Assembly: GCA_964537035.1 (NCBI GenBank)
Contig: CAZIAK010000004.1
Coordinates: 81,871-145,870, forward strand
Origin: an uncultured Phycisphaerales bacterium
Lineage (GTDB): Bacteria; Planctomycetota; B15-G4
Direction: 5' to 3'
Length of the DNA: 64,000 nt
Shown: piece by piece, positions 3,001-59,461 of the stretch
Position numbering within the stretch: position 1 is the stretch's first letter
How the letters are laid out: each line of letters starts with the position of its first letter
The notes under the pieces: generated by a model
Told to the model about the DNA's origin: nothing
Databases searched by the model: none
Seen by the model: only the letters and a program-made list of their open reading frames with translations
Position numbers and translations under genes: made by a program

Positions 3001-4534
3001 GGGACAGCGGCTGCAGCCGGGTGACCGTGGCGCCAGTGTCTCGCACCAGGGCATAGAGGCTGCCACCGGGCGCCTGGGCGATATCGAGCACCGTTGGCCC
3101 CCCCGCCGGAAACGGCTGGCTGGCGAAGCCGGTCTGACCATCGCCGGTGGTCAGGGCCACCAGCTGGGGCGGGCCAGGGTCCGGGTTGCCCAGGGAGGGT
3201 CGGTCTCGCAGCACCGTGGGCAGCAACTCGACCAGGCGGCCCGTGGCCCGGTCGAAGACGACCAGGCGACCGTCTACCAGGGTCTGCAGCCCCGTGGCGT
3301 CCGCCAGGCCGGTGTCCAGACCGCCCGGTGCGTCGACGGAAAGCGACGCAAAGGACGGGTCGCCCCGCAGGTGGTCGAAGACCGTCAGCCGATCGTTCCC
3401 CCCAGCCACGGGCAACAGGGCAAACAGGATCGCCGGGTCGACGCCGGTGGCCAGGCTCGATGGCGTGGTGGCGAAGGCCGGGTTGGCCCCGGGGAGGGCG
3501 CCGCCCTGCACCACCAGGGCTGAGCCGTCCCCAGGGGGAGGGCTGCCCTCCGTCAGCGCAGACAGGGCCGCGAACGGCGGGTGAACGCCCAGAGCGTCGG
3601 TGGGCACGGTGTGCGCCACCAACAGCTGGGTCCCCCGGGTACGGAGGAAGAACGTCGGCTCAACCTTGCCATCTCCGGTGAGGTCCGAACCCAGCAGGTT
3701 GGCCACCGTGGGCACCACCTGACGGTCAAAGGTCACCAGGATGTCTGACGGGCCCGGGCCAAAGGTCATGGCCGTGGAGTCCAAGGCCTGGTTCGAGAAC
3801 ACACCGGGGAAGAAGTCGGTGGCACCGTCGGGTGGTGAGAGGCTGACCACCGCTGGGGGCGCCCCATCTGCGCCGCTCGCTGGGTAGTAGGCGATGGGAT
3901 TGGCGGTGGTCCCGAACTGGATGCTGCCCCCGGGGCCCACCAGATTCGTGATCTTGGAGGTCAGGCTCGTGGAGACCTGGGCCGTGTAGATCGATCCCGG
4001 GAGCAGCCCCGGGATGCCCGCCTCTCCGCCTGCTCCCGAGGGGTCGACGGGCGCCGTGGGCAGGAAGGGCAGGAACTCCACGGCGAAGAGGCTCTGGGCG
4101 GGGTCTGTCACCAGCACGTAGGTGCCCTTGGCCAAGATCAGGGACTGGCCCCCAGGGGGGCTGAGGCCCGGGGCCAGGTCAGCGGGGGTGGTGAAGACCG
4201 GCAGGGCCGTCGGGGTGAACGGCCCGGCGGGCACGCCATCGAAGAGAAAACGGACCACCGTGTTGAGGGGGGCGCCCAGGGTGGGCGGCACCGCCATGGT
4301 GTCCTCGAAGGCTGGGGCCGTGGTGACCTCGCCCGCGGCCGAGCGGAAGGCGAAGCCCAAGAACTGCACGGTGTCATCGGGGTCTGGGGCTGGCCCACCC
4401 ACGGTGATCACCCCCCCTGAGCCACCGCCGCCTCCCCCGCAGCCCATGGCCAGCAGGGCCAGGAACAGCGCCCATCCTCCTCTGGCCAGGTGGACAGCGG
4501 GCCGCCCAGGTCGATGGTCTTTGGCGGGATTCAT
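1..4534 (-). CDS. large secreted (lipo)protein, at least 1511 aa, 3' end beyond the window edge; Ig-like N-terminal region, Gly-rich beta-helix-like C-terminal region
   Basis: Absent from the ORF track because it runs off the window. Reading the minus strand from ATG at 4534 gives MNPAKDHRPGRPAVHLARGGWALFLALLAMGCGGGGGGSGGVITVGG..., a signal peptide plus lipobox-like LLAMGC. I read it without a stop down to position 2. Later segments include ..VVSLSPPDGATDFFPG.. (Ig-like), ..AKGGGGGGGGGSIHIRCFGDITIGRLGYIDATGGDGGGG.. and ..FVGGGGGGSGGAVLLEAGGSVIM... The + strand track ORFs here (179..1216, 1901..3523) are antisense artefacts. Confidence 0.8.
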   Translation of the reverse strand, partial: MNPAKDHRPGRPAVHLARGGWALFLALLAMGCGGGGGGSGGVITVGGPAPDPDDTVQFLGFAFRSAAGEVTTAPAFEDTMAVPPTLGAPLNTVVRFLFDGVPAGPFTPTALPVFTTPADLAPGLSPPGGQSLILAKGTYVLVTDPAQSLFAVEFLPFLPTAPVDPSGAGGEAGIPGLLPGSIYTAQVSTSLTSKITNLVGPGGSIQFGTTANPIAYYPASGADGAPPAVVSLSPPDGATDFFPGVFSNQALDSTAMTFGPGPSDILVTFDRQVVPTVANLLGSDLTGDGKVEPTFFLRTRGTQLLVAHTVPTDALGVHPPFAALSALTEGSPPPGDGSALVVQGGALPGANPAFATTPSSLATGVDPAILFALLPVAGGNDRLTVFDHLRGDPSFASLSVDAPGGLDTGLADATGLQTLVDGRLVVFDRATGRLVELLPTVLRDRPSLGNPDPGPPQLVALTTGDGQTGFASQPFPAGGPTVLDIAQAPGGSLYALVRDTGATVTRLQPLSPVDLDSNGVFDPADGLPDAVAPSITLPGDYVDVVFRSEGELLALDRSRDQIDVVNLNSGVAAVAVPDVAAFGFPLDQLPGQQSPASALAYGCLDLDAQVSLVSNGPEGAVLTVKPAGLLPVGAEVTLMQRNIFTSLFGTSAVNADPAAPAVPAGASALSTVTTATPLAGAAQPIDDVFFEPFSDASFEDTSATGLSPLAEWAQLVGASGNSGGLRASVGVGPVGVLGDFIPQPPPGFDPTLVRYQPTGSALGDQDLNTIPLQFTTVLLDTDSQAFPLADGSTPGVTQAVTVFGGQFTFRDFIIPAGVHVVVKGSLPLRVVATGRVQIDGILDVSASHGSSDDSFNSGFLPNAGGPGGPGGGRGGDGQPTLFDPTGPGTINQYVTPETGEQGRGPVITGAGKVVFQAVGGRGGLSTMGYDAAGSGLPKLSDSANDEHHRPPGGGGGSFFFRGDESHEGAGVYKVQSSSSWFPFSLCPTNDKIRDAIYGNEENLNSGGSPITALQCVYMDGTPINPVRLKPGAPGGDAVFGDGDPSNDFIGPGGEVSQLIGGQGGGGGGSRVDSMRHKIWSLDNKGSPLPSPPAPPFYPKLLNGIYVSPAVFDAKGGGGGGGGGSIHIRCFGDITIGRLGYIDATGGDGGGGELLSNSTFVGGGGGGSGGAVLLEAGGSVIMEADPGHRAAGFTDQDGDQGAAIDVSGGQGRDSRASSTAAGSFTGFGYVANRSDGGQGGFGLIQLQVGDGTGMAQIAEGAYAFARKRTMLKEGAWTGTAVKQLDNDAFPPGASSAFPDDLRYIDMLHWRSFDADGSGGSRFNSYTLNGSYPPIIPSVDGNNGSGLNYEWPSGSGQFWADTPMTVSAYSDNRPVVLEPQPELIMKTYLGWDPVTFLEPFHQQGPPPGTLWDAADEIPLAVTLAEPDGTPFMITVEGSQVFDPAHVIDRLPLVHPSLTPPSIGSVSIGTSQWIDFQGMSLRARDGSGRPPPFFEAFLGTFNEQGGAFPLPIPP

Positions 4535-4759: not shown

Positions 4760-6484
4760 ATGAGGGCCCTCCCCCGAGTCGAAAGTCCCGCCATGTACCG
4801 CCCCCTCTTGAGCTTTGCGCTCCTAGCTGCCTTCGTGACCCCGCTCGTGGCCCAGAGCAACATGAACGTCACCAGGCTCGGCAGACTCGATGAACACCCC
4901 GAGGGATACAACGACGTGTGGGGCTATGTGGCGCCGGACGGGCGTGAATACGCGCTCCTGGGTACACAGGACGGGCTCTCCGTCATCAACGCCAGCAACC
5001 CCCTCGCTCCCTACGAGGTGGCCTTCTTTCCCACCAACAACTGCCTCTGGCACGACATCAAGTCCTGGGGGCGGTACGTCTACGAGGCCACGGACTGCAG
5101 CTCAGGCGTCAGGGTCTTCGACATGCTCGACCCGGAGAACCCGGTCCTGGCCGGTGAGTTCGCCCAGTCGACCATCGACAACGCCCACAACATCCAGATC
5201 GACCTGGGCACCGGCCTGCTCTACACCGTGGGTGACGGCAACGGCTTCACGGTCTGGAACCTGGCCATCGATCCCGTCAACCCGCCGCTGGTCAAGGTCT
5301 GGAGTGGTGGCGGCAACAACTACATTCATGATCTCTACGTGTTCAACGGCAAGGCCCATACGGCGCGGATCTACGCTGGCAGCTACGACATCGTCAACGT
5401 GGCCAACCTGCCTGCGGTGAGCACCATCGGCTCGGCCCCCTCTGGCGCGAACTTCACCCACTCCACCTGGGTCAACAACGCCGAGACCACGGCGGTTGTG
5501 GTAGACGAGACCACGGGCAACCGGCACTTGTCGTTCTTCGACATCAGCGACCCCAGCAACCCCTCGCTGACGTCGTCGTACTCGGAGGACATCACCACAA
5601 GCCCCCACAACCCGTTCATCACGGATGATGAGATCTGCCACGTGTCCTGGTACTCAGAGGGCTACATCGCCCTGGACATGTCCGACCCTGCCAACCCGGT
5701 GAAGGTCGGTCGCTTTGACACGACCCCGGGGGCGGGCGCCCCGATCAGCTTGTTCACCGGCGCCTGGGGTTGCTACCCCTTCCAGCCCTCTGGCTTCATC
5801 TACATCAGCGACATCCAGAAGGGGCTGTACATTCTTCAGCTCAACTCTGCCTGCCCCACCGACCCGGGAGGTGCGCCGGTCTTGTGCAAGGTCTGGCCTG
5901 AGAACGTGAGCGTTCTCGAGAGCCCGCGCCACCCGGTGATCCTCACCGGCAATGACATGTCCGACGCGACCTCGATCACCGTGGGCGACGTGGTGCTCAC
6001 GCCGCCGCAGTTCACGGTCAAGAACCAGATGCTCTACTTCAACATGCCTCTGGTGAGTCAGCTCGGTCCCAACGCCATCTCGGTGACAACACCCTCCGGC
6101 ACCACCTCGGGAATGAGCATCAATGTCACCGCGCCCGTGGGCACGCCCCTGCTCGACAGCGGGCCCGCCCAGGCCGCAGACGGCAGCTTTCTTGAGGTCG
6201 CCGTGGGCAGCAACCCAGGGGATCTGCACTACATCGCCCTGGCTTTCTCCATCGGCCAGTCTGCCGTGCCTGGCAAGGTGACCTTCGACATCGGCAGCAA
6301 CTTCAGCGACCTGTTCCTGCAGCCCCTGCTCGTGGCCAACGGAGCCGGAGTGAGCGGCCTCGGGGTGGTGGTCCCGGCCATCGCCGTGGGCGCCACGGTC
6401 TACTGGCAGGCCGCCGTATTCGACCCCAACGCAGGCTGGCCCAGCCCCGCCACGAACTTCACCTCCACCACTTTCGTCCCCTGA
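4760..6484 (+). CDS. secreted LVIVD-repeat / choice-of-anchor-B-like beta-propeller protein with C-terminal IPT/TIG-like domain
   Basis: Track ORF 4490..6484. In-frame ATGs occur at 4760 and 4793; the signal peptide MYRPLLSFALLAAFVTPLVAQ begins at 4793. Repeated propeller-like motifs: GYNDVWGYVAPDGREYALLG, WHDIKSWGRYVYEA, AHNIQIDLGTGLLYTV, YIHDLYVFNGKAHTA, PHNPFITDDEICHVSWY. The C-terminal PVILTGNDMSDATSITV...ISVTTPSGTTSG resembles IPT/TIG. Confidence 0.7.
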   Translation: MRALPRVESPAMYRPLLSFALLAAFVTPLVAQSNMNVTRLGRLDEHPEGYNDVWGYVAPDGREYALLGTQDGLSVINASNPLAPYEVAFFPTNNCLWHDIKSWGRYVYEATDCSSGVRVFDMLDPENPVLAGEFAQSTIDNAHNIQIDLGTGLLYTVGDGNGFTVWNLAIDPVNPPLVKVWSGGGNNYIHDLYVFNGKAHTARIYAGSYDIVNVANLPAVSTIGSAPSGANFTHSTWVNNAETTAVVVDETTGNRHLSFFDISDPSNPSLTSSYSEDITTSPHNPFITDDEICHVSWYSEGYIALDMSDPANPVKVGRFDTTPGAGAPISLFTGAWGCYPFQPSGFIYISDIQKGLYILQLNSACPTDPGGAPVLCKVWPENVSVLESPRHPVILTGNDMSDATSITVGDVVLTPPQFTVKNQMLYFNMPLVSQLGPNAISVTTPSGTTSGMSINVTAPVGTPLLDSGPAQAADGSFLEVAVGSNPGDLHYIALAFSIGQSAVPGKVTFDIGSNFSDLFLQPLLVANGAGVSGLGVVVPAIAVGATVYWQAAVFDPNAGWPSPATNFTSTTFVP

Positions 6485-12285: not shown

Positions 12286-12374
12286 CCGCCAAACCACCCC
12301 AGCGCGTGAGCAAGCGTCACCGCCGAAGAACGACCCCCCGAAAGGCCACAGTCGCCGGCCTCTCCAGCTGACGA

Positions 12375-12477
12375 GGTCGTCGCTGGTTCTCGCCAGGGGG
12401 GGTCTGGAGCGAGTTCACGAGGCGCAGCCGAGTTGTCTGAGCGCCACGGCCCCCCCTGGCGAGAACCAGCGACGACC
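12375..12477. repeat. long-stem hairpin element, copy A (28-bp perfect inverted repeat, 47-nt loop)
   Basis: Arm 12375..12402 (ggtcgtcgctggttctcgccaggggggg) is the exact reverse complement of 12450..12477. The loop starts tctggagcgagt and contains gtctgagcg, the same motifs as copies at 56482 and 57341. It lies between convergent genes ending at 12285 (+) and 12537 (-). Confidence 0.9.
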
Positions 12478-12536
12478 GGAGCACCCCAAAGAAGGCCGCG
12501 ACCTGTAGCGCAGCCCGCAGCCCGCAGCCAGCCCCC

Positions 12537-48013: not shown

Positions 48014-49507
48014 TCAGGGCAGCAGGTGAAAGGTCTCGCCCGGCAGGGCCTCGACACCCGGCAAGACCTCGACCGTGCCGCTGGGCAGCAGCACCCGGCG
48101 GGTCAGACCGTCGCTGGCCCCGATGACCACCGCCAGATCGAGGCCCGCGGCCACCAGGCGATCGGCGTCCGCCAGGGATGCCGTGGTGGGTTGCGGGCGC
48201 AGGCCCGTGGCAGGGTCCCAGGCCAACAGCACTCGGGCGCCCGCCAGGTCGGTGGCCAGCACCAGCGCACCGCCCGCCACGGGAGCGGCGTCGAGAATCT
48301 GGAACAGGGGCAACGCAGGCTGGTCCAGCGCGCCAGGCACACCCAGCTCGACCCGGGTCAGCGAGATGTTCTGGGCCAAGACGGCGCCGGCTTCTGCGGC
48401 GGCGACCGGGGCTGGTACCACCAGGGCCAGCTCATCGTCGACCAGCACGAGGCGCAAGGGGTCCACGGCCAGCGGATAGGGACGGACCCAGCCGGTAGAC
48501 AGGTCGTACACCGTGAGCGCACCAGGCAACCCTCCCGCACGACGGGTCAGCACCAGCAACCGCGACCCTTGCAGGACCATGTCAGCCACGGACTGATCGC
48601 CGTTGAACCCGGCGGTGAAGGGCATGGCCGCAGAGCCGCTGATCAGGTCGATCTCCCGCACCAGCAGATCGTCTTCGGCCACGAAGGCCGTGCGCCCGTC
48701 GTGGCTCACCGCCCAGCGCCGCCCGGACACGGGCTGGCCCAGGGGCTCGATCATGAGGTCGTTGTAGCGATCGTCAAGAAACTGCAGCCGTCCCGCAGAG
48801 GGCAGCCCCTCGAGTCCCAGGGCGTCTGGCCTGACGATGACGAACGCCGGGCCCGCGGCTGTGCTGTGGGCCAAGGCGTCGCCGTCGGCGTCGAGCCTGT
48901 AGATCACGTTGGGCCGTCGGTCCCAGGCTCCGGCGGAGCGCACTTCGAGAGCGCCCCCCTCGCGCAGCACGTAGCCCACCGTGCCGTCGGCAGAAAGAGC
49001 CAGACCGCGCACAGGCGTGGTGCCTGGCAAGGCTGGCTGGAGCACCGTCCCGGTGCGCAGGTCGACGCGCTGCCACCCGACGGTGGTAGGCAAGACCACT
49101 GCCGGGGGCTGCACCAGCAAGGTGCATTCCGCACGAGCGGCCGAGCCGAGAACCGAGAAGGACAGCGCGATCAGCCGCCCCGCATCGTCGGGGTCGTCGA
49201 GCAGCACGCGCAGTTCGAGCAGGCCTGACTCGTCGGCCACGCCCAGCACCTGCAGCACATCCCCTCGGGGACTGGCCTCGCCCCACACGCCGCTGGCCAG
49301 AGACTCCCGCACGGACGGCGGCGCCTGGGCTGCCATCTCGAGTTCGATCAGGATCGCCACGCCCGGGCTGCCCCCTTCGAGCACCAGGGCCAGCTCATCC
49401 CCCGCCAAGGGGAACGAGTGGTGCACCAGCAACTCGTCGCTGCTTTGAGCTGCAACCCGTCCGGAGACGGTGAGCAGCAAGGCGAGGAGCAGGGGAGCGA
49501 TGCGCAT
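48014..49507 (-). CDS. secreted beta-propeller-like hypothetical protein
   Basis: ATG 49507. Signal peptide MRIAPLLLALLLTVSGRVAAQ. Repeated segments of the type VRGLALSADGTVGYVL.. and RRWAVSHDGRTAFVAEDD.. resemble YVTN/TolB-type blades. The stop lies 8 nt before the CHAT start. Confidence 0.5.
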   Translation of the reverse strand: MRIAPLLLALLLTVSGRVAAQSSDELLVHHSFPLAGDELALVLEGGSPGVAILIELEMAAQAPPSVRESLASGVWGEASPRGDVLQVLGVADESGLLELRVLLDDPDDAGRLIALSFSVLGSAARAECTLLVQPPAVVLPTTVGWQRVDLRTGTVLQPALPGTTPVRGLALSADGTVGYVLREGGALEVRSAGAWDRRPNVIYRLDADGDALAHSTAAGPAFVIVRPDALGLEGLPSAGRLQFLDDRYNDLMIEPLGQPVSGRRWAVSHDGRTAFVAEDDLLVREIDLISGSAAMPFTAGFNGDQSVADMVLQGSRLLVLTRRAGGLPGALTVYDLSTGWVRPYPLAVDPLRLVLVDDELALVVPAPVAAAEAGAVLAQNISLTRVELGVPGALDQPALPLFQILDAAPVAGGALVLATDLAGARVLLAWDPATGLRPQPTTASLADADRLVAAGLDLAVVIGASDGLTRRVLLPSGTVEVLPGVEALPGETFHLLP

Positions 49508-56314: not shown

Positions 56315-56481
56315 GACTCGTGTCGGCCGGAAGACACTTGCGAGAAAGCGCAGAACGCCAGAACCTCCACCTCATGAACACCCTGATGAGATGGAGAGGA
56401 AACTCGCAAGCCCCCGAGCGATCTCAGGGCAACGAGCAACAACTCCCGAAGGGCCACAGTTGCCAGATCTTCCACCGAGGA

Positions 56482-56581
56482 GGGCGTGCCTGTTTCTCAG
56501 CAGGGGGGTCTGAAGCGAGTGTGGAGGCCCTGCCGACCCTGTCTGAGCGAAAGGCCCCCCTGCTGAGAAACAGGCACGCCC
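56482..56581. repeat. long-stem hairpin element, copy B (26-27 bp perfect inverted repeat, 46-nt loop)
   Basis: Arm 56483..56508 (ggcgtgcctgtttctcagcagggggg) is the exact reverse complement of 56555..56580. The loop is tctgaagcgagtgtggaggccctgccgaccctgtctgagcgaaagg. Confidence 0.9.
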
Positions 56582-56663
56582 GGCACATCGCAGACAAGGC
56601 GAGCTGCGGCCCAGGCCAGACCTCACCCTTGATCAGCGCCGCCCCTCGTGGGACACAAGACAG

Positions 56664-57131
56664 ATGACCTCTCTCATCACTGAAGCCACACCTGCCTTTG
56701 CCGACACCAAGTGTGGCGGCTGCACCGCGCTCTGCTGCAACTACTTCGCCCTCGAGATCGACGGGCCAGACGAGCCCGAAGACTTCGAGAACATGCGCTG
56801 GTACATCCTGCATCAGGGCGTGCAGATCTTCGTCGACGACGACGTGTGGTATCTGAACATCGAGCGCCGCTGCACCTGGCTGGTGGGCAACCAGTGCGGC
56901 AACTACGAGAAGCGCCCGACCATCTGCCGCGAATACACCGACGTGGGCTGCGAGAAGGACGAGCCCGAGAGCGACCTGCTGTTCAGGAACATCGAAGAGC
57001 TGGAGGCCTACCGGGACACGTGGGTCGCCGACTACGAGGCCAAGCGAGCCAAGAAGGCCGCCAAGAAGGAGGCCAAGCGGGCTGCGAAGAAGGCGGCCAA
57101 GATCGCCAAGCTGAACAAGAAGAACCGCTAG
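56664..57131 (+). CDS. YkgJ-family (CxxCxxCC) cysteine-cluster protein with Lys/Ala-rich basic tail
   Basis: KCGGCTALCCNYF and CGNYEKRPTICREY. C-terminal AKRAKKAAKKEAKRAAKKAAKIAKLNKKNR. Confidence 0.7.
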   Translation: MTSLITEATPAFADTKCGGCTALCCNYFALEIDGPDEPEDFENMRWYILHQGVQIFVDDDVWYLNIERRCTWLVGNQCGNYEKRPTICREYTDVGCEKDEPESDLLFRNIEELEAYRDTWVADYEAKRAKKAAKKEAKRAAKKAAKIAKLNKKNR

Positions 57132-57340
57132 GAGTCCTTGCGTCCTCGGCTCTCGGCTCCTGTGCGCCGTTGAAGGCCCCGCGGTCCGCGACTCCAGCTG
57201 CTCTGCCGTCTCTGGGACGAAGGAGCCCAGGTGCCCGTCCGAGAGCCAGACCCTCGACGGCCCTCAGCACGAGAGCCCGTCGTGACCACCGGCGAACAAA
57301 CCCTGGTCAGGCCACGGTCGCCGGTCTCTCCACCCGCGAG

Positions 57341-57439
57341 GGCGTCCCTGTTTCTCAGCAGGGGGGTCTGCAGCGAGTGTGGAGGCAAAGCCGACCCTGT
57401 CCGAGCGAAACGGCCCCCCTGGTGAGAAACAGGGACGCC
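57341..57439. repeat. long-stem hairpin element, copy C (26-bp inverted repeat with 1 mismatch, 47-nt loop)
   Basis: Arm 57341..57366 (ggcgtccctgtttctcagcagggggg) pairs with 57414..57439 (cccccctggtgagaaacagggacgcc). The loop is tctgcagcgagtgtggaggcaaagccgaccctgtccgagcgaaacgg. Flanks are shared with copy B (gagggcgt... and ...acgcccggcacatcg). Confidence 0.9.
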
Positions 57440-57486
57440 CGGCACATCGTGAAGACCGCGGTCTGTGGCGCCGACTCCCGGCTCGC

Positions 57487-59256
57487 TCAGTCGTCGAGCA
57501 CGTTCAGCGCCCACTGTTCCAGGTCGCGGAGCTCGACCAGGGCCTCGTCGATGTGCGCTTCCAGGGCGGTGCGCTCGGGAGAGCGACGGTGGGTGGGCTC
57601 GAAGTCCTCGATGGACAGCACCGCCTCCCGATACCAGTAGCTCCAGGCCACCAGGATCGAGCGCTCGCGGTCAGAGACCAGCGCCCGTCGGGTGGGGTCG
57701 TCTGCCACCGTGTCCAGGTAGGCCACCGCATTGCGGGCTTCTGCCTCCAGCCGCACCCGGGCCGCGCTCATCACGATGGCCAGCACCTCTTCGGCCCGCT
57801 CGTAGCCTGCCTGGGCGAAGTGGTGCACCAACGCCAGGGTGGCCAGGCTCACATTGGCCAGCTCGTCCGCGCTCACCTCTGCCAGACGATCGAGGTTGGT
57901 GTGGTAGTAGGGGTCGGTGAAGTGCCACATGAGCACGGCCGGGATGCCCCGCTCAAGGAACGACACGTGATCGCTGCCCCCCTCGAAGGGGTTGCTGCGC
58001 ACGGGCCAGCCCGTCTCGGCCTTGCGCGCGTCCATGGCCGCCATGACGTAGTCGTTGGCGAAGGAGCCCTTGAGGTCGCTCTGGCGTACGTCTCCCCGGC
58101 CCCACTCAGAGTGGACGTCGAGGGGCGGGCGGTCCCAGATGGCACCCGGGTCGGGCATGCGTTCGACCAATGGCACCGCACCATTGGTTCGGGGGTCTTG
58201 TCCCACCATGTCGATGATCACGGCCAGATCGACCGCATCAGAGGTCGCCCGCAACCACTCTCGGGAGCACTCGAACTCCATGCCCACCAAGAACGTGATC
58301 GAGCGGCGAGGGCGAGGCAGACGGTCTTCGCGAATCGCCCTCAGGTAGCCCGCAGCCATGGCCACGGTGCTGGCGGCACCGGAGGCGTTGTCGTTCGCTC
58401 CAGGCTCATCGATGTGGGACACCAGGGCGATGGTGCCGGCCTGGGGGTCCGAGCCAGCGATGCGGGCTACCAAGGTGCGTGAGCGGGACTCGCTGAAACG
58501 TGAGTTGATCAAGACCTTCACGTAGACCATGCCCCCGCCCAGAAGCCGCTCGAGCACGTCTCGCTTGGCAGCGGACACGTTCATGCCGAAGCCCTTGCGC
58601 TCGGCGTCGTACGGCACCGACGAATAGCGGATCGAATCCCGGTAGGTCTCCGCCTCGTTGTAGGCGGGCAGGAACGACGAGATCACACCCAGCGCGCCGC
58701 CCTGCTGGACCGCCCGCACGAAGAGGGTCTCGGCGGGCAGGGAGCCGTAGACCACCGTCCCGGCATAGCTCTCTACCGGCTTGCTGTGCTCGAACTCGAC
58801 CAGGGGGGCCAACACACCCTCGGGCCGGGTGGGGAACGAGTTGCCGCACAAGAACGTGCGCTCGAGCCCTGCCTCGGAGTCGAACGAGTGCAGCACCCCC
58901 ACATCGGGAGAATAGACCGAGAGGGAGGCGTTGAAGGGCGTCCAGGAGGGTTCGACCGGCCCGAAGTCGTGCAGCTCGACCGTGTCGCCGCCGTCGCCCG
59001 AGGCGGTGTCAAAGCCTGACTCCTGGAGCTTCGAGTAGAGGGCATCGAGACTGCGGATGTAGCCCTGGTTGCCACGCATGCGGTAGTGGGGGTCGAGGGC
59101 GGCGACCAAGGCCAGCGCTTCATCCTGGTCGAAACACTGCTGAACCTGCGTCAGCGCGTCTGCGAGGGTCGAGCCATCCCCTGGGCTTGCGGCGACCCGG
59201 GTCACCAGACCGAGGGACACGACGAACGCCAGGCTCACTTTGCCGAAGAACTTCAC
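57487..59256 (-). CDS. secreted M28-family peptidase-like protein
   Basis: Track ORF trimmed to GTG 59256, preceded by GGGAGG with an 8-nt spacer. Signal peptide VKFFGKVSLAFVVSLGLVTRVAA. ALVSHIDEPGANDNASGAASTVAMAAG and FLVGMEFECSREWL. Confidence 0.7.
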   Translation of the reverse strand: MKFFGKVSLAFVVSLGLVTRVAASPGDGSTLADALTQVQQCFDQDEALALVAALDPHYRMRGNQGYIRSLDALYSKLQESGFDTASGDGGDTVELHDFGPVEPSWTPFNASLSVYSPDVGVLHSFDSEAGLERTFLCGNSFPTRPEGVLAPLVEFEHSKPVESYAGTVVYGSLPAETLFVRAVQQGGALGVISSFLPAYNEAETYRDSIRYSSVPYDAERKGFGMNVSAAKRDVLERLLGGGMVYVKVLINSRFSESRSRTLVARIAGSDPQAGTIALVSHIDEPGANDNASGAASTVAMAAGYLRAIREDRLPRPRRSITFLVGMEFECSREWLRATSDAVDLAVIIDMVGQDPRTNGAVPLVERMPDPGAIWDRPPLDVHSEWGRGDVRQSDLKGSFANDYVMAAMDARKAETGWPVRSNPFEGGSDHVSFLERGIPAVLMWHFTDPYYHTNLDRLAEVSADELANVSLATLALVHHFAQAGYERAEEVLAIVMSAARVRLEAEARNAVAYLDTVADDPTRRALVSDRERSILVAWSYWYREAVLSIEDFEPTHRRSPERTALEAHIDEALVELRDLEQWALNVLDD

Positions 59257-59461
59257 GTCTGAAACCTCCCATACCATCGCTGTCAGGCTGGCCACAGCGT
59301 AACGCCCGAGATGGACCGTGGCGGCAGCGAGTCGAGAAACCGACGATACCCCTCCCGACCCTGTGACCGGAATATGATCCTGGCAAGGTCATCAGGGAGC
59401 CTCCTCTGAAACGAGGGCCCCCGGGGCCTCCCCCATCACCGAGACACCCTGCGAGAGACCT

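Follow-up and report, generated by a model that had tools for sequence, protein, structure and literature searches.

Two hairpins on either side of a ykgJ-family gene in an uncultured Phycisphaerales bacterium probably belong to a lineage-specific family of quasi-palindromic interspersed repeats

Why do two nearly identical long hairpins stand in the same orientation on either side of a ykgJ-family gene in an uncultured Phycisphaerales bacterium? Could they represent a structured RNA, the ends of a mobile cassette, or a family of repeat DNA? The locus lies in a stretch of 64,000 nucleotides (assembly GCA_964537035.1, contig CAZIAK010000004.1, positions 81,871 to 145,870), hereafter called the window. 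The original prediction, made from these letters alone, took the two hairpins, copies B and C, either for a structured RNA or for a DNA palindrome family resembling repetitive extragenic palindromic (REP) sequences or miniature inverted-repeat transposable elements (MITEs). We conclude, with a probability of about 80%, that both belong to a family of interspersed repeats, non-autonomous, quasi-palindromic and specific to this lineage, similar in kind to REPs, to REPINs (hairpins formed by REP doublets) and to MITEs, and that ykgJ lies between them by coincidence. The family itself is new, but bacterial repeat DNA of this kind is familiar; we do not read the hairpins as a special RNA gene beside ykgJ. 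Copies have spread through this species and among its relatives, they decay by internal deletion, and within any one genome they appear homogenised. On this reading, what surrounds the ykgJ-like gene is ordinary repeat DNA and not an RNA specific to that gene.

The window is part of contig C4 of its own assembly, G000, a metagenome-assembled genome (MAG) of 5.06 Mb that comprises 101 contigs, is 88% complete and contains 100-N scaffold gaps. A 19-nt motif from the hairpin arm occurs six times in the window, compared to 0.05 occurrences expected by chance. BLAST against the assembly returned at least 40 full-length matches; the loci number 77 in a BLAST census and 76 in an iterated nhmmer census; they are spread over dozens of contigs, and about 62 are full length. 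A covariance model built from 29 copies retrieves about 60 full-length matches above 110 bits in G000, including copies B and C and a third copy in the window. Both of the searches that had been proposed, one with the unit itself and one with a covariance model, thus recover a dispersed family. The two copies first noticed are real; the third copy and the roughly 76 loci in the genome had been overlooked. Copies are mutually 82–96% identical and have unique flanks, and G000 also contains short forms with internal deletions as well as 5' or 3' modules on their own. The REP- or MITE-like half of the original prediction is borne out by these dispersed loci, by presence and absence at orthologous sites that follow lineage, by decayed and internally deleted copies, and by a patchy occurrence among genera.

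Could the family be an artefact of assembly or binning, or the pair in the window a chance encounter of two GC-rich palindromes? G000 is a MAG in 101 pieces, some of its 100-N gaps fall at elements, and about a dozen loci are cut by contig ends or such gaps, which indicates that the repeat often breaks the assembly into contigs. Nevertheless, we regard this explanation as extremely improbable. A scan of metagenomes detected 80 loci, 68 of them from three samples that contain the same population as G000 (99.4–100% identity); there the same loci recur in independent contigs at 99.5–100% identity. The differences among copies, their unique flanks and the low chance expectation of the arm motif likewise contradict it. 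Gaps coincide with elements at C16:82994-83195, at C22 near 48300-48415 and at C43 near 6200-6320 (all G000). At C16:82994-83195 the same 5' module is duplicated on either side of the gap, and scaffolding around the repeats is unreliable.

What does a single element look like? Reading of the sequence and a repeat finder place hairpins B and C in direct orientation 858–859 nt apart, as described. The exchange of a G-C for a C-G pair between them (GGCGTGCC/GGCACGCC in B, GGCGTCCC/GGGACGCC in C) preserves pairing, and the single uncompensated change in copy C is present. The unit, however, is not the 100 nt or so first proposed. When copies are aligned together with their flanks, conservation reaches about 40 nt past each arm, and these conserved flanks, which had escaped notice, pair to form an outer helix. 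The full unit measures about 180 nt (range 167–185 nt) and can form one long interrupted hairpin as single-stranded DNA or RNA. Its sense is that of the adjoining gene, the reverse complement of the orientation first chosen. In the outer helix, CAGCGCTACAGGTCGC pairs with GCGACTGTGGCC; this part is conserved and has a bulged G and a U-G pair, while its extension differs in sequence among copies and keeps its complementarity. A variable internal loop leads to an inner helix of 27 bp, which contains the arms of the original prediction and likewise varies among copies with its arms remaining complementary. The apex of about 46 nt is conserved and comes in two subtypes. A U-rich stretch (consensus TTCGTTTCTT) follows 3' of the hairpin only after a CGGGGG spacer. 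The copies in the window and the genes next to B and C are as follows.

57301 to 57479, minus strand: copy C, full unit of about 179 nt (covariance model match G000:C4:139171-139349, minus strand, 176.9 bits, model positions 1-179).
57340 to 57440, minus strand: copy C, inner helix and apical region of about 46 nt, the part seen in the original prediction (arms 57340-57366 and 57414-57440, 27 nt, 96% complementary by repeat finder).
57458 to 57473, minus strand: copy C, 5' strand of the outer helix, CGGCGCCACAGACCGC (minus strand), which pairs with 57311-57323, GGCGACCGTGGCC (minus strand).
57487 to 57489, minus strand: TGA stop of the M28-peptidase gene, 13 nt before the outer helix of copy C.
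57487 to 59295, minus strand: M28-peptidase gene (PF04389 Peptidase_M28, E = 7.6e-14).
56443 to 56620, minus strand: copy B, full unit of about 178 nt (covariance model match G000:C4:138313-138490, minus strand, 172 bits).
56482 to 56581, minus strand: copy B, inner helix and apical region (arms 56482-56511 and 56552-56581, 30 nt, 97% complementary, 40 nt between them, by repeat finder).
56451 to 56464, minus strand: copy B, outer-helix strand, GGGCCACAGTTGCC (plus strand), which pairs with 56598-56612, GGCGAGCTGCGGCCC (plus strand).
12335 to 12519, minus strand: third, more diverged copy (covariance model match G000:C4:94205-94389, minus strand, 161.2 bits; arms 12383-12401 and 12451-12469).
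56664 to 57131, plus strand: CxxCxxCC (YkgJ-family) gene between copies B and C, a bystander (PF03692, E = 1.2e-7).

On the gene-sense strand the full units fold at -99.3 kcal/mol for copy C (z = -3.9) and -104 kcal/mol for copy B (z = -6.0), and in neither case was any of 200 shuffles as stable. Copy B is atypical in that its outer helix is degraded (its 5'-module alignment scores only 14.5) and no gene end adjoins its 5' end. It occupies a 350-nt gap between a PMT_2/TPR glycosyltransferase-like gene and the YkgJ-family gene and is antisense to both. Two statements about the surroundings held up: no canonical U-tract terminator is present on either strand between 56200 and 57700, and the neighbouring genes are not transposases. 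A sigma-70 promoter is likewise absent from both strands of that region. The third copy carries the second loop subtype, GAGTTCACGAGGC..AGCCGAGTTGTC (plus strand), and lies between divergent genes, so that it is not behind a stop codon. A pseudoknot between CCUCCAC of the internal loop and GUGGAGG of the apex was considered and dropped, as it shows no covariation with the second loop subtype. Nor is there support for two elements, with the inner hairpin inserted as a unit of its own into an 'empty platform' palindrome: the short forms are heterogeneous deletion derivatives.

Where do the copies sit? Genes of G000 were called with a home-made codon-usage caller (3200 genes, 84% coding). Among the 55 copies for which both neighbours were called, 39 lie between convergent genes, although convergent regions make up only 16% of all intergenic regions. 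The element adjoins a stop codon with one fixed end, and the gene that stops there runs opposite to the orientation first used; this makes the reverse complement the meaningful orientation. The order is gene, stop codon, 1–13 nt, outer helix. In 30 of 41 copies with a recognisable 5' module the stop of the upstream gene falls within -11 to +13 nt. These 30 stops are TAG in 19 cases, TGA in nine and TAA in two, compared to 580 TAG (18%), 2452 TGA and 138 TAA genome-wide. A TAG is found no more than 12 nt upstream in 20 of the 41 copies, versus 3.4% at random positions; in these 20 it precedes the outer helix by 1–9 nt, and the base preceding it is G in 11 of the 20, not clearly above the expectation for third codon positions. 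Copy C, behind the TGA of the M28-peptidase gene, occupies a position typical of the family. Some copies, B among them, are antisense to both neighbouring genes or lie beside gene starts. Apart from B and C, nearly all copies are single or form inverted pairs between convergent genes. We considered whether such inverted pairs, together with the segment between them, are composites that carry a small gene, and rejected this: the four middle segments are non-homologous, and one holds an unrelated repeat family.

How far does the family extend? BLAST found the element only in G000, with one match in G001, the only other genome of the genus, and an exact-pattern scan of 185,579 species representatives likewise returned G001 alone. 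Applied to 16 genomes of the bacterial family, the covariance model reaches further: G001 has about 14 loci, G014 (a genome in two contigs) 17 matches, G011 four and G010 one, and there is no match in the 11 other genomes, two of which belong to the same genus as G014. Relatives that have diverged from the element are thus scattered over three further genera. The remaining 12 of the 80 metagenome loci come from a fourth sample and represent a sister lineage (81–92% identity). Distant copies keep the apical signature, GCTCAGACA, a small hairpin and ACTCGCCTCAGA. Their 5' end reads T|AGGAGTCTGCGC, and its TAG closes a long upstream open reading frame (ORF) in 12 of 23 cases (-18 to +7 nt). A sub-family in G001 (loci L167-L169) has GCGCAAGAG/CTCTTGCGC-like sequences in place of the G-run that tops the inner helix (CCAGGGGGG/CCCCCCTGG), and keeps the pairing. 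With its anatomy, census, context, turnover and distribution described, this family adds a characterised case to the poorly surveyed repeats of uncultured bacteria.

We compared filled and empty sites between G000 and G001, using the last 200 nt of 30 upstream genes as anchors. None of the 20 orthologous sites retrieved in G001, that of copy C included, contains any module of the element. At the cleanest double site, two convergent genes have TAG as their stop in G000 and G001 alike. They stand 53 nt apart in G001. In G000 the distance is about 690 nt, and each TAG is directly followed by an element, the two elements being inverted around a middle segment. The reverse comparison starts from copies of the sister lineage. 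Two of these correspond to sites in G000 that at first appeared empty but retain the first 45–55 nt of the element, which marks them as partial deletions. Others correspond to sites where G000 has unrelated sequence after the shared TAG or CTAG.

These comparisons also bear on the stop codon. It is TAG in both the filled and the empty state in five cases; in three, TAG at the filled site corresponds to TGA or TAA at the same position of the empty one. Judged from these eight sites, the element seems both to prefer TAG and sometimes to create it. As the elements break assemblies and appear to swap stop codons for TAG, they affect gene ends as well as MAG quality. No direct repeat is common to both flanks in 58 aligned copies, and CTAG follows the element in about seven of the 58, no more often than estimated from base composition.

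Do B and C, then, delimit a mobile cassette with the ykgJ-family gene as its cargo, as integron attC sites or the two ends of a composite element would? The suggestion has something to it, given two direct copies 858 nt apart around a single small gene. In G001, however, the same M28 gene and a ykgJ-like gene are convergent across about 130 nt at the site of copy C, without any element, so the repeats did not bring ykgJ with them. Copy C is to be assigned to the peptidase stop rather than to ykgJ, the outer helix of copy B is degraded, and other copies are not found as cassette arrays. We therefore consider a cassette very improbable, and the two hairpins do not bracket ykgJ as a unit.

Is the hairpin maintained as RNA or as DNA? 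The compensatory change between B and C had been read as a pointer towards RNA. It is real and proves to be family-wide. Within G000, 96.4% of cells in the alignment are paired, versus about 49% when the partner is slid, and 25 pairs show two-sided changes, compared to 8.9 in shuffles; none of 500 shuffles reaches 25. Across genera, in an alignment fitted to the model that includes a few opposite-strand rows, the inner helix is 92.9% paired and 26 of its 27 pairs have two-sided changes. By itself such compensation cannot tell RNA from DNA, since REPINs, which are DNA elements, commonly show it too (PMC3116915). The kind of change is more informative. Transversion swaps, such as C-G to G-C or U-A to A-U, account for 41 cells of 17 types and transitions for 22 cells of seven types; wobble pairs occupy only five cells. 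Stepwise compensation via G-U pairs cannot yield transversion swaps. Identity reaches 0.92 in the unpaired apex and 0.79 in the variable helix, so the apex is the better conserved of the two. Between two loop subtypes, a change of two bases makes a small imperfect palindrome perfect; this is the signature of quasi-palindrome template switching, a mutational process established in E. coli (PMC7202029). The swaps, the conserved apex and the perfected palindrome together argue against selection at the RNA level.

Three orthologous copies shared with the sister lineage illustrate the process in place. Their flanks and the 5' strand of their outer helix are near-identical between the lineages and share a rare variant; in each, four to six stem pairs have changed on both arms in situ. 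The loop bears the signature of each lineage's own family, which indicates that copies are homogenised within genomes. We note a caution for RNA discovery: a family of DNA palindromes can pass every covariation test, here with none of 500 shuffles matching it. What points away from RNA is the share of transversions relative to transitions among the swaps, together with the way conservation is divided between loop and stem.

Which known systems does the element resemble? Close parallels are REPINs with their REP-associated tyrosine transposases (RAYTs), as described in Pseudomonas fluorescens SBW25 (PMC3116915). Both families comprise tens to hundreds of extragenic copies, form a long hairpin from two inverted halves around a spacer, have conserved ends and a more variable paired middle, and show compensatory changes, singlet remnants, decayed copies and sequence populations proper to each lineage. 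Like REPs, the copies described here are extragenic and mostly downstream of ORFs. Unlike REPs and REPINs, which are short palindromes of 20–40 nt or doublet hairpins of about 90 nt, the element reaches about 180 nt and has a conserved, non-palindromic apex of about 46 nt, and no RAYT was found in the five carrier genomes. REPs of the GTAG-tagged superfamily and 'TIR' (terminal inverted repeat) families next to RAYT-like genes (Di Nocera et al. 2013, PMC3733652) also lie downstream of ORFs, between unidirectional or convergent genes; their termini often supply the TAG stop of the flanking ORF, they include sub-families with alternative complementary stem residues, and they have G-T pairs in their stems. 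The superfamily is reported in the PVC superphylum (PMC3733652). All these traits recur here, apart from dimensions and tag. Classical REP stems measure 5–13 bp with loops of 2–20 nt, whereas the element is a compound interrupted hairpin of about 75 bp; TAG occurs in about half of the copies, with a preceding G in 11 of 20, so that a GTAG tag is not established, and no tyrosine transposase was found.

MITEs such as the Correia/NEMIS elements of Neisseria and ERIC/IRU of enterobacteria share the size of 100–200 nt, long inverted repeats, dispersed intergenic copies co-transcribed with neighbouring genes, and a patchy occurrence among relatives. Correia/NEMIS and ERIC/IRU elements have defined terminal inverted repeats, and Correia elements a TA target duplication. 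No duplication is seen here, and a strict orientation behind stop codons is not a general feature of MITEs. The original prediction had named a high-copy MITE with target-site duplications and without covariation as an outcome that would contradict it; the copy number is indeed high, yet no duplication was seen and covariation is strong. The ends of IS200/IS605 elements and the derived PATEs (palindrome-associated transposable elements) act as single-strand hairpins with a strand-specific orientation, insert beside a short fixed sequence and leave no target duplication, all of which fits our element. They differ in having two distinct sub-terminal hairpins, left and right, instead of one long hairpin, and in requiring a Y1 transposase, TnpA. 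Integron attC sites form arrays in one orientation, one site per cassette, beside an integron integrase, for which no search was made; the copies described here are dispersed, and in intrinsic terminators the U-tract follows the stem immediately, which TTCGTTTCTT does not. Rfam 15, searched at E <= 10, gave no match at the gathering score, contrary to what a known RNA family would have produced. The best scores, 24.2 and 20.5 bits versus the required 77.5 and 80, were to plant microRNA-precursor models and are generic matches to long hairpins. Judged by the features that define them, the element cannot be assigned to REP-RAYT systems, classical MITEs, IS200/IS605 derivatives, attC sites or intrinsic terminators, nor to any Rfam family.

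Several results weigh against our reading of the family as interspersed repeat DNA. A search for RAYTs had been recommended, and the Y1/RAYT domain PF01797 was not found in G000 (88% complete), G001, G010, G011 or G014, while the same search was positive in six of 14 control genomes. Genes of IS110 type occur in seven of the 16 family genomes and in only two of the five carriers; IS91-type Y2 genes are present in G000, G001 and two non-carriers, and absent from G014, G011 and G010. Neither type tracks the element over the family. At filled and empty sites we saw no target-site duplication and no exact 3' boundary, the latter not being definable because the intergenic DNA of G000 and G001 has diverged too far. 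Near-identical contigs of the same population show no presence/absence polymorphism, only 100-N scaffold gaps, which suggests that the copies are fixed. With TGA or TAA in the empty orthologue at three of eight TAG sites, a simple rule of insertion after a pre-existing TAG fails. In four genera the copies keep close to stop codons, which would also fit a function in the transcript. Finally, G-U pairs number 271 on the gene-sense strand and 117 on the opposite one, and the gene-sense strand is the more stable in 38 of 50 copies; this too would fit such a function, although much of this asymmetry stems from wobble positions inherited family-wide. As to the enzyme, no pair of copies flanks a gene of transposase size. 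Transposase searches covered the Y1, IS110 and IS91 types only, not DDE enzymes, and MAGs tend to lose insertion sequences.

The link to stop codons and the strand asymmetry lead to the main rival. Could the element be a structured RNA module of 3' untranslated regions (UTRs), selected by the host as a stabiliser against 3' exonucleases, as a terminator or insulator between convergent genes, or as a device acting on terminating ribosomes, and multiplied because it is useful? The covariation would then reflect selection for an RNA fold. This would account for the fixed orientation with a start 1–13 nt after the upstream stop, seen in three other genera as well, for the surplus of G-U pairs and stability on the gene-sense strand, for the U-rich tail TTCGTTTCTT a few bases past the hairpin and for the very stable fold; REPs, moreover, are reported to act as 3'-UTR elements (PMC3733652). 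It sits poorly with two thirds of the double changes being transversion swaps with almost no wobble intermediates, with an apex more conserved than the helix, and with the lack of an Rfam match and of a canonical terminator. Copies are missing from 20 of 20 orthologous sites in G001 without visible replacement, so the genes concerned do not need the element. Decayed fragments are common, and copies such as B lie antisense to both neighbours or beside gene starts. We consider a host-selected RNA module unlikely.

How, then, might a family of non-autonomous DNA repeats maintain such a hairpin at such a site? The hairpin would be needed at the DNA level, for copying or for recognition by an enzyme. 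The complementarity of its arms would be kept largely by DNA processes, by quasi-palindrome template switching or by one arm being copied from the other, rather than by selection on RNA. The position at stop codons may combine an insertion preference for TAG, or its creation, with the harmlessness of that site. As part of the transcribed 3' end of the upstream gene, a hairpin of about -100 kcal/mol may also protect or end the transcript, as REPs do; by this analogy a role as RNA is possible as a by-product.

A bolder proposal is, in our view, about as unlikely as the RNA module. In it the element would be a RAYT-independent hairpin replicator that writes its own TAG at gene ends in four genera and regenerates an arm from its partner, so accounting for the perfect transversion swaps; the apex, GCTCAGACA ... 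ACTCGCCTCAGA, would serve as the recognition site of an undescribed enzyme. Alternatively, it could be a domesticated, stop-proximal RNA device that acts on terminating ribosomes or on mRNA decay.

Among the transposase searches, two partial matches in G000 deserve mention, neither of which adjoins a hairpin element: one to an IS91-type Y2 transposase at C3:94732-95007 (66.8 bits), and one to an IS110-type transposase at C53:28186-28383 (32.4 bits), at a contig end. G000 carries several interspersed repeat families. A second, unrelated family of about 145 nt occurs at C17:52790-52936, C53:9656-9801, C16:21489-21633 and C63:9500-9643; it has at least three copies at about 96% identity and some ten weaker ones, and one copy is nested between two inverted hairpin elements. 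At about C23:3620-3700, downstream of an element near 3428-3610, at least six tandem copies of the 9-nt unit GCGCTTGGA run into a 100-N gap. Downstream of one gene of G001, at locus L134 (G001:C227:5605-6205), a 12-nt unit (GGTGCGCTGAAC-like) is repeated in tandem about 12 times; the G000 orthologue of that gene is followed by a hairpin element.

FtsZ_C was undetectable in G000 and detected in 13 of 14 control genomes. FtsZ is reported to be absent from Planctomycetes (PMC4910669), and the result fits the planctomycete assignment of the genome. The YkgJ-family protein between copies B and C (56664-57131) ends in a Lys/Ala-rich tail (…AKRAKKAAKKEAKRAAKKAAKIAKLNKKNR) with the look of histone H1, and the end of its G001 orthologue is also Lys/Ala-rich.

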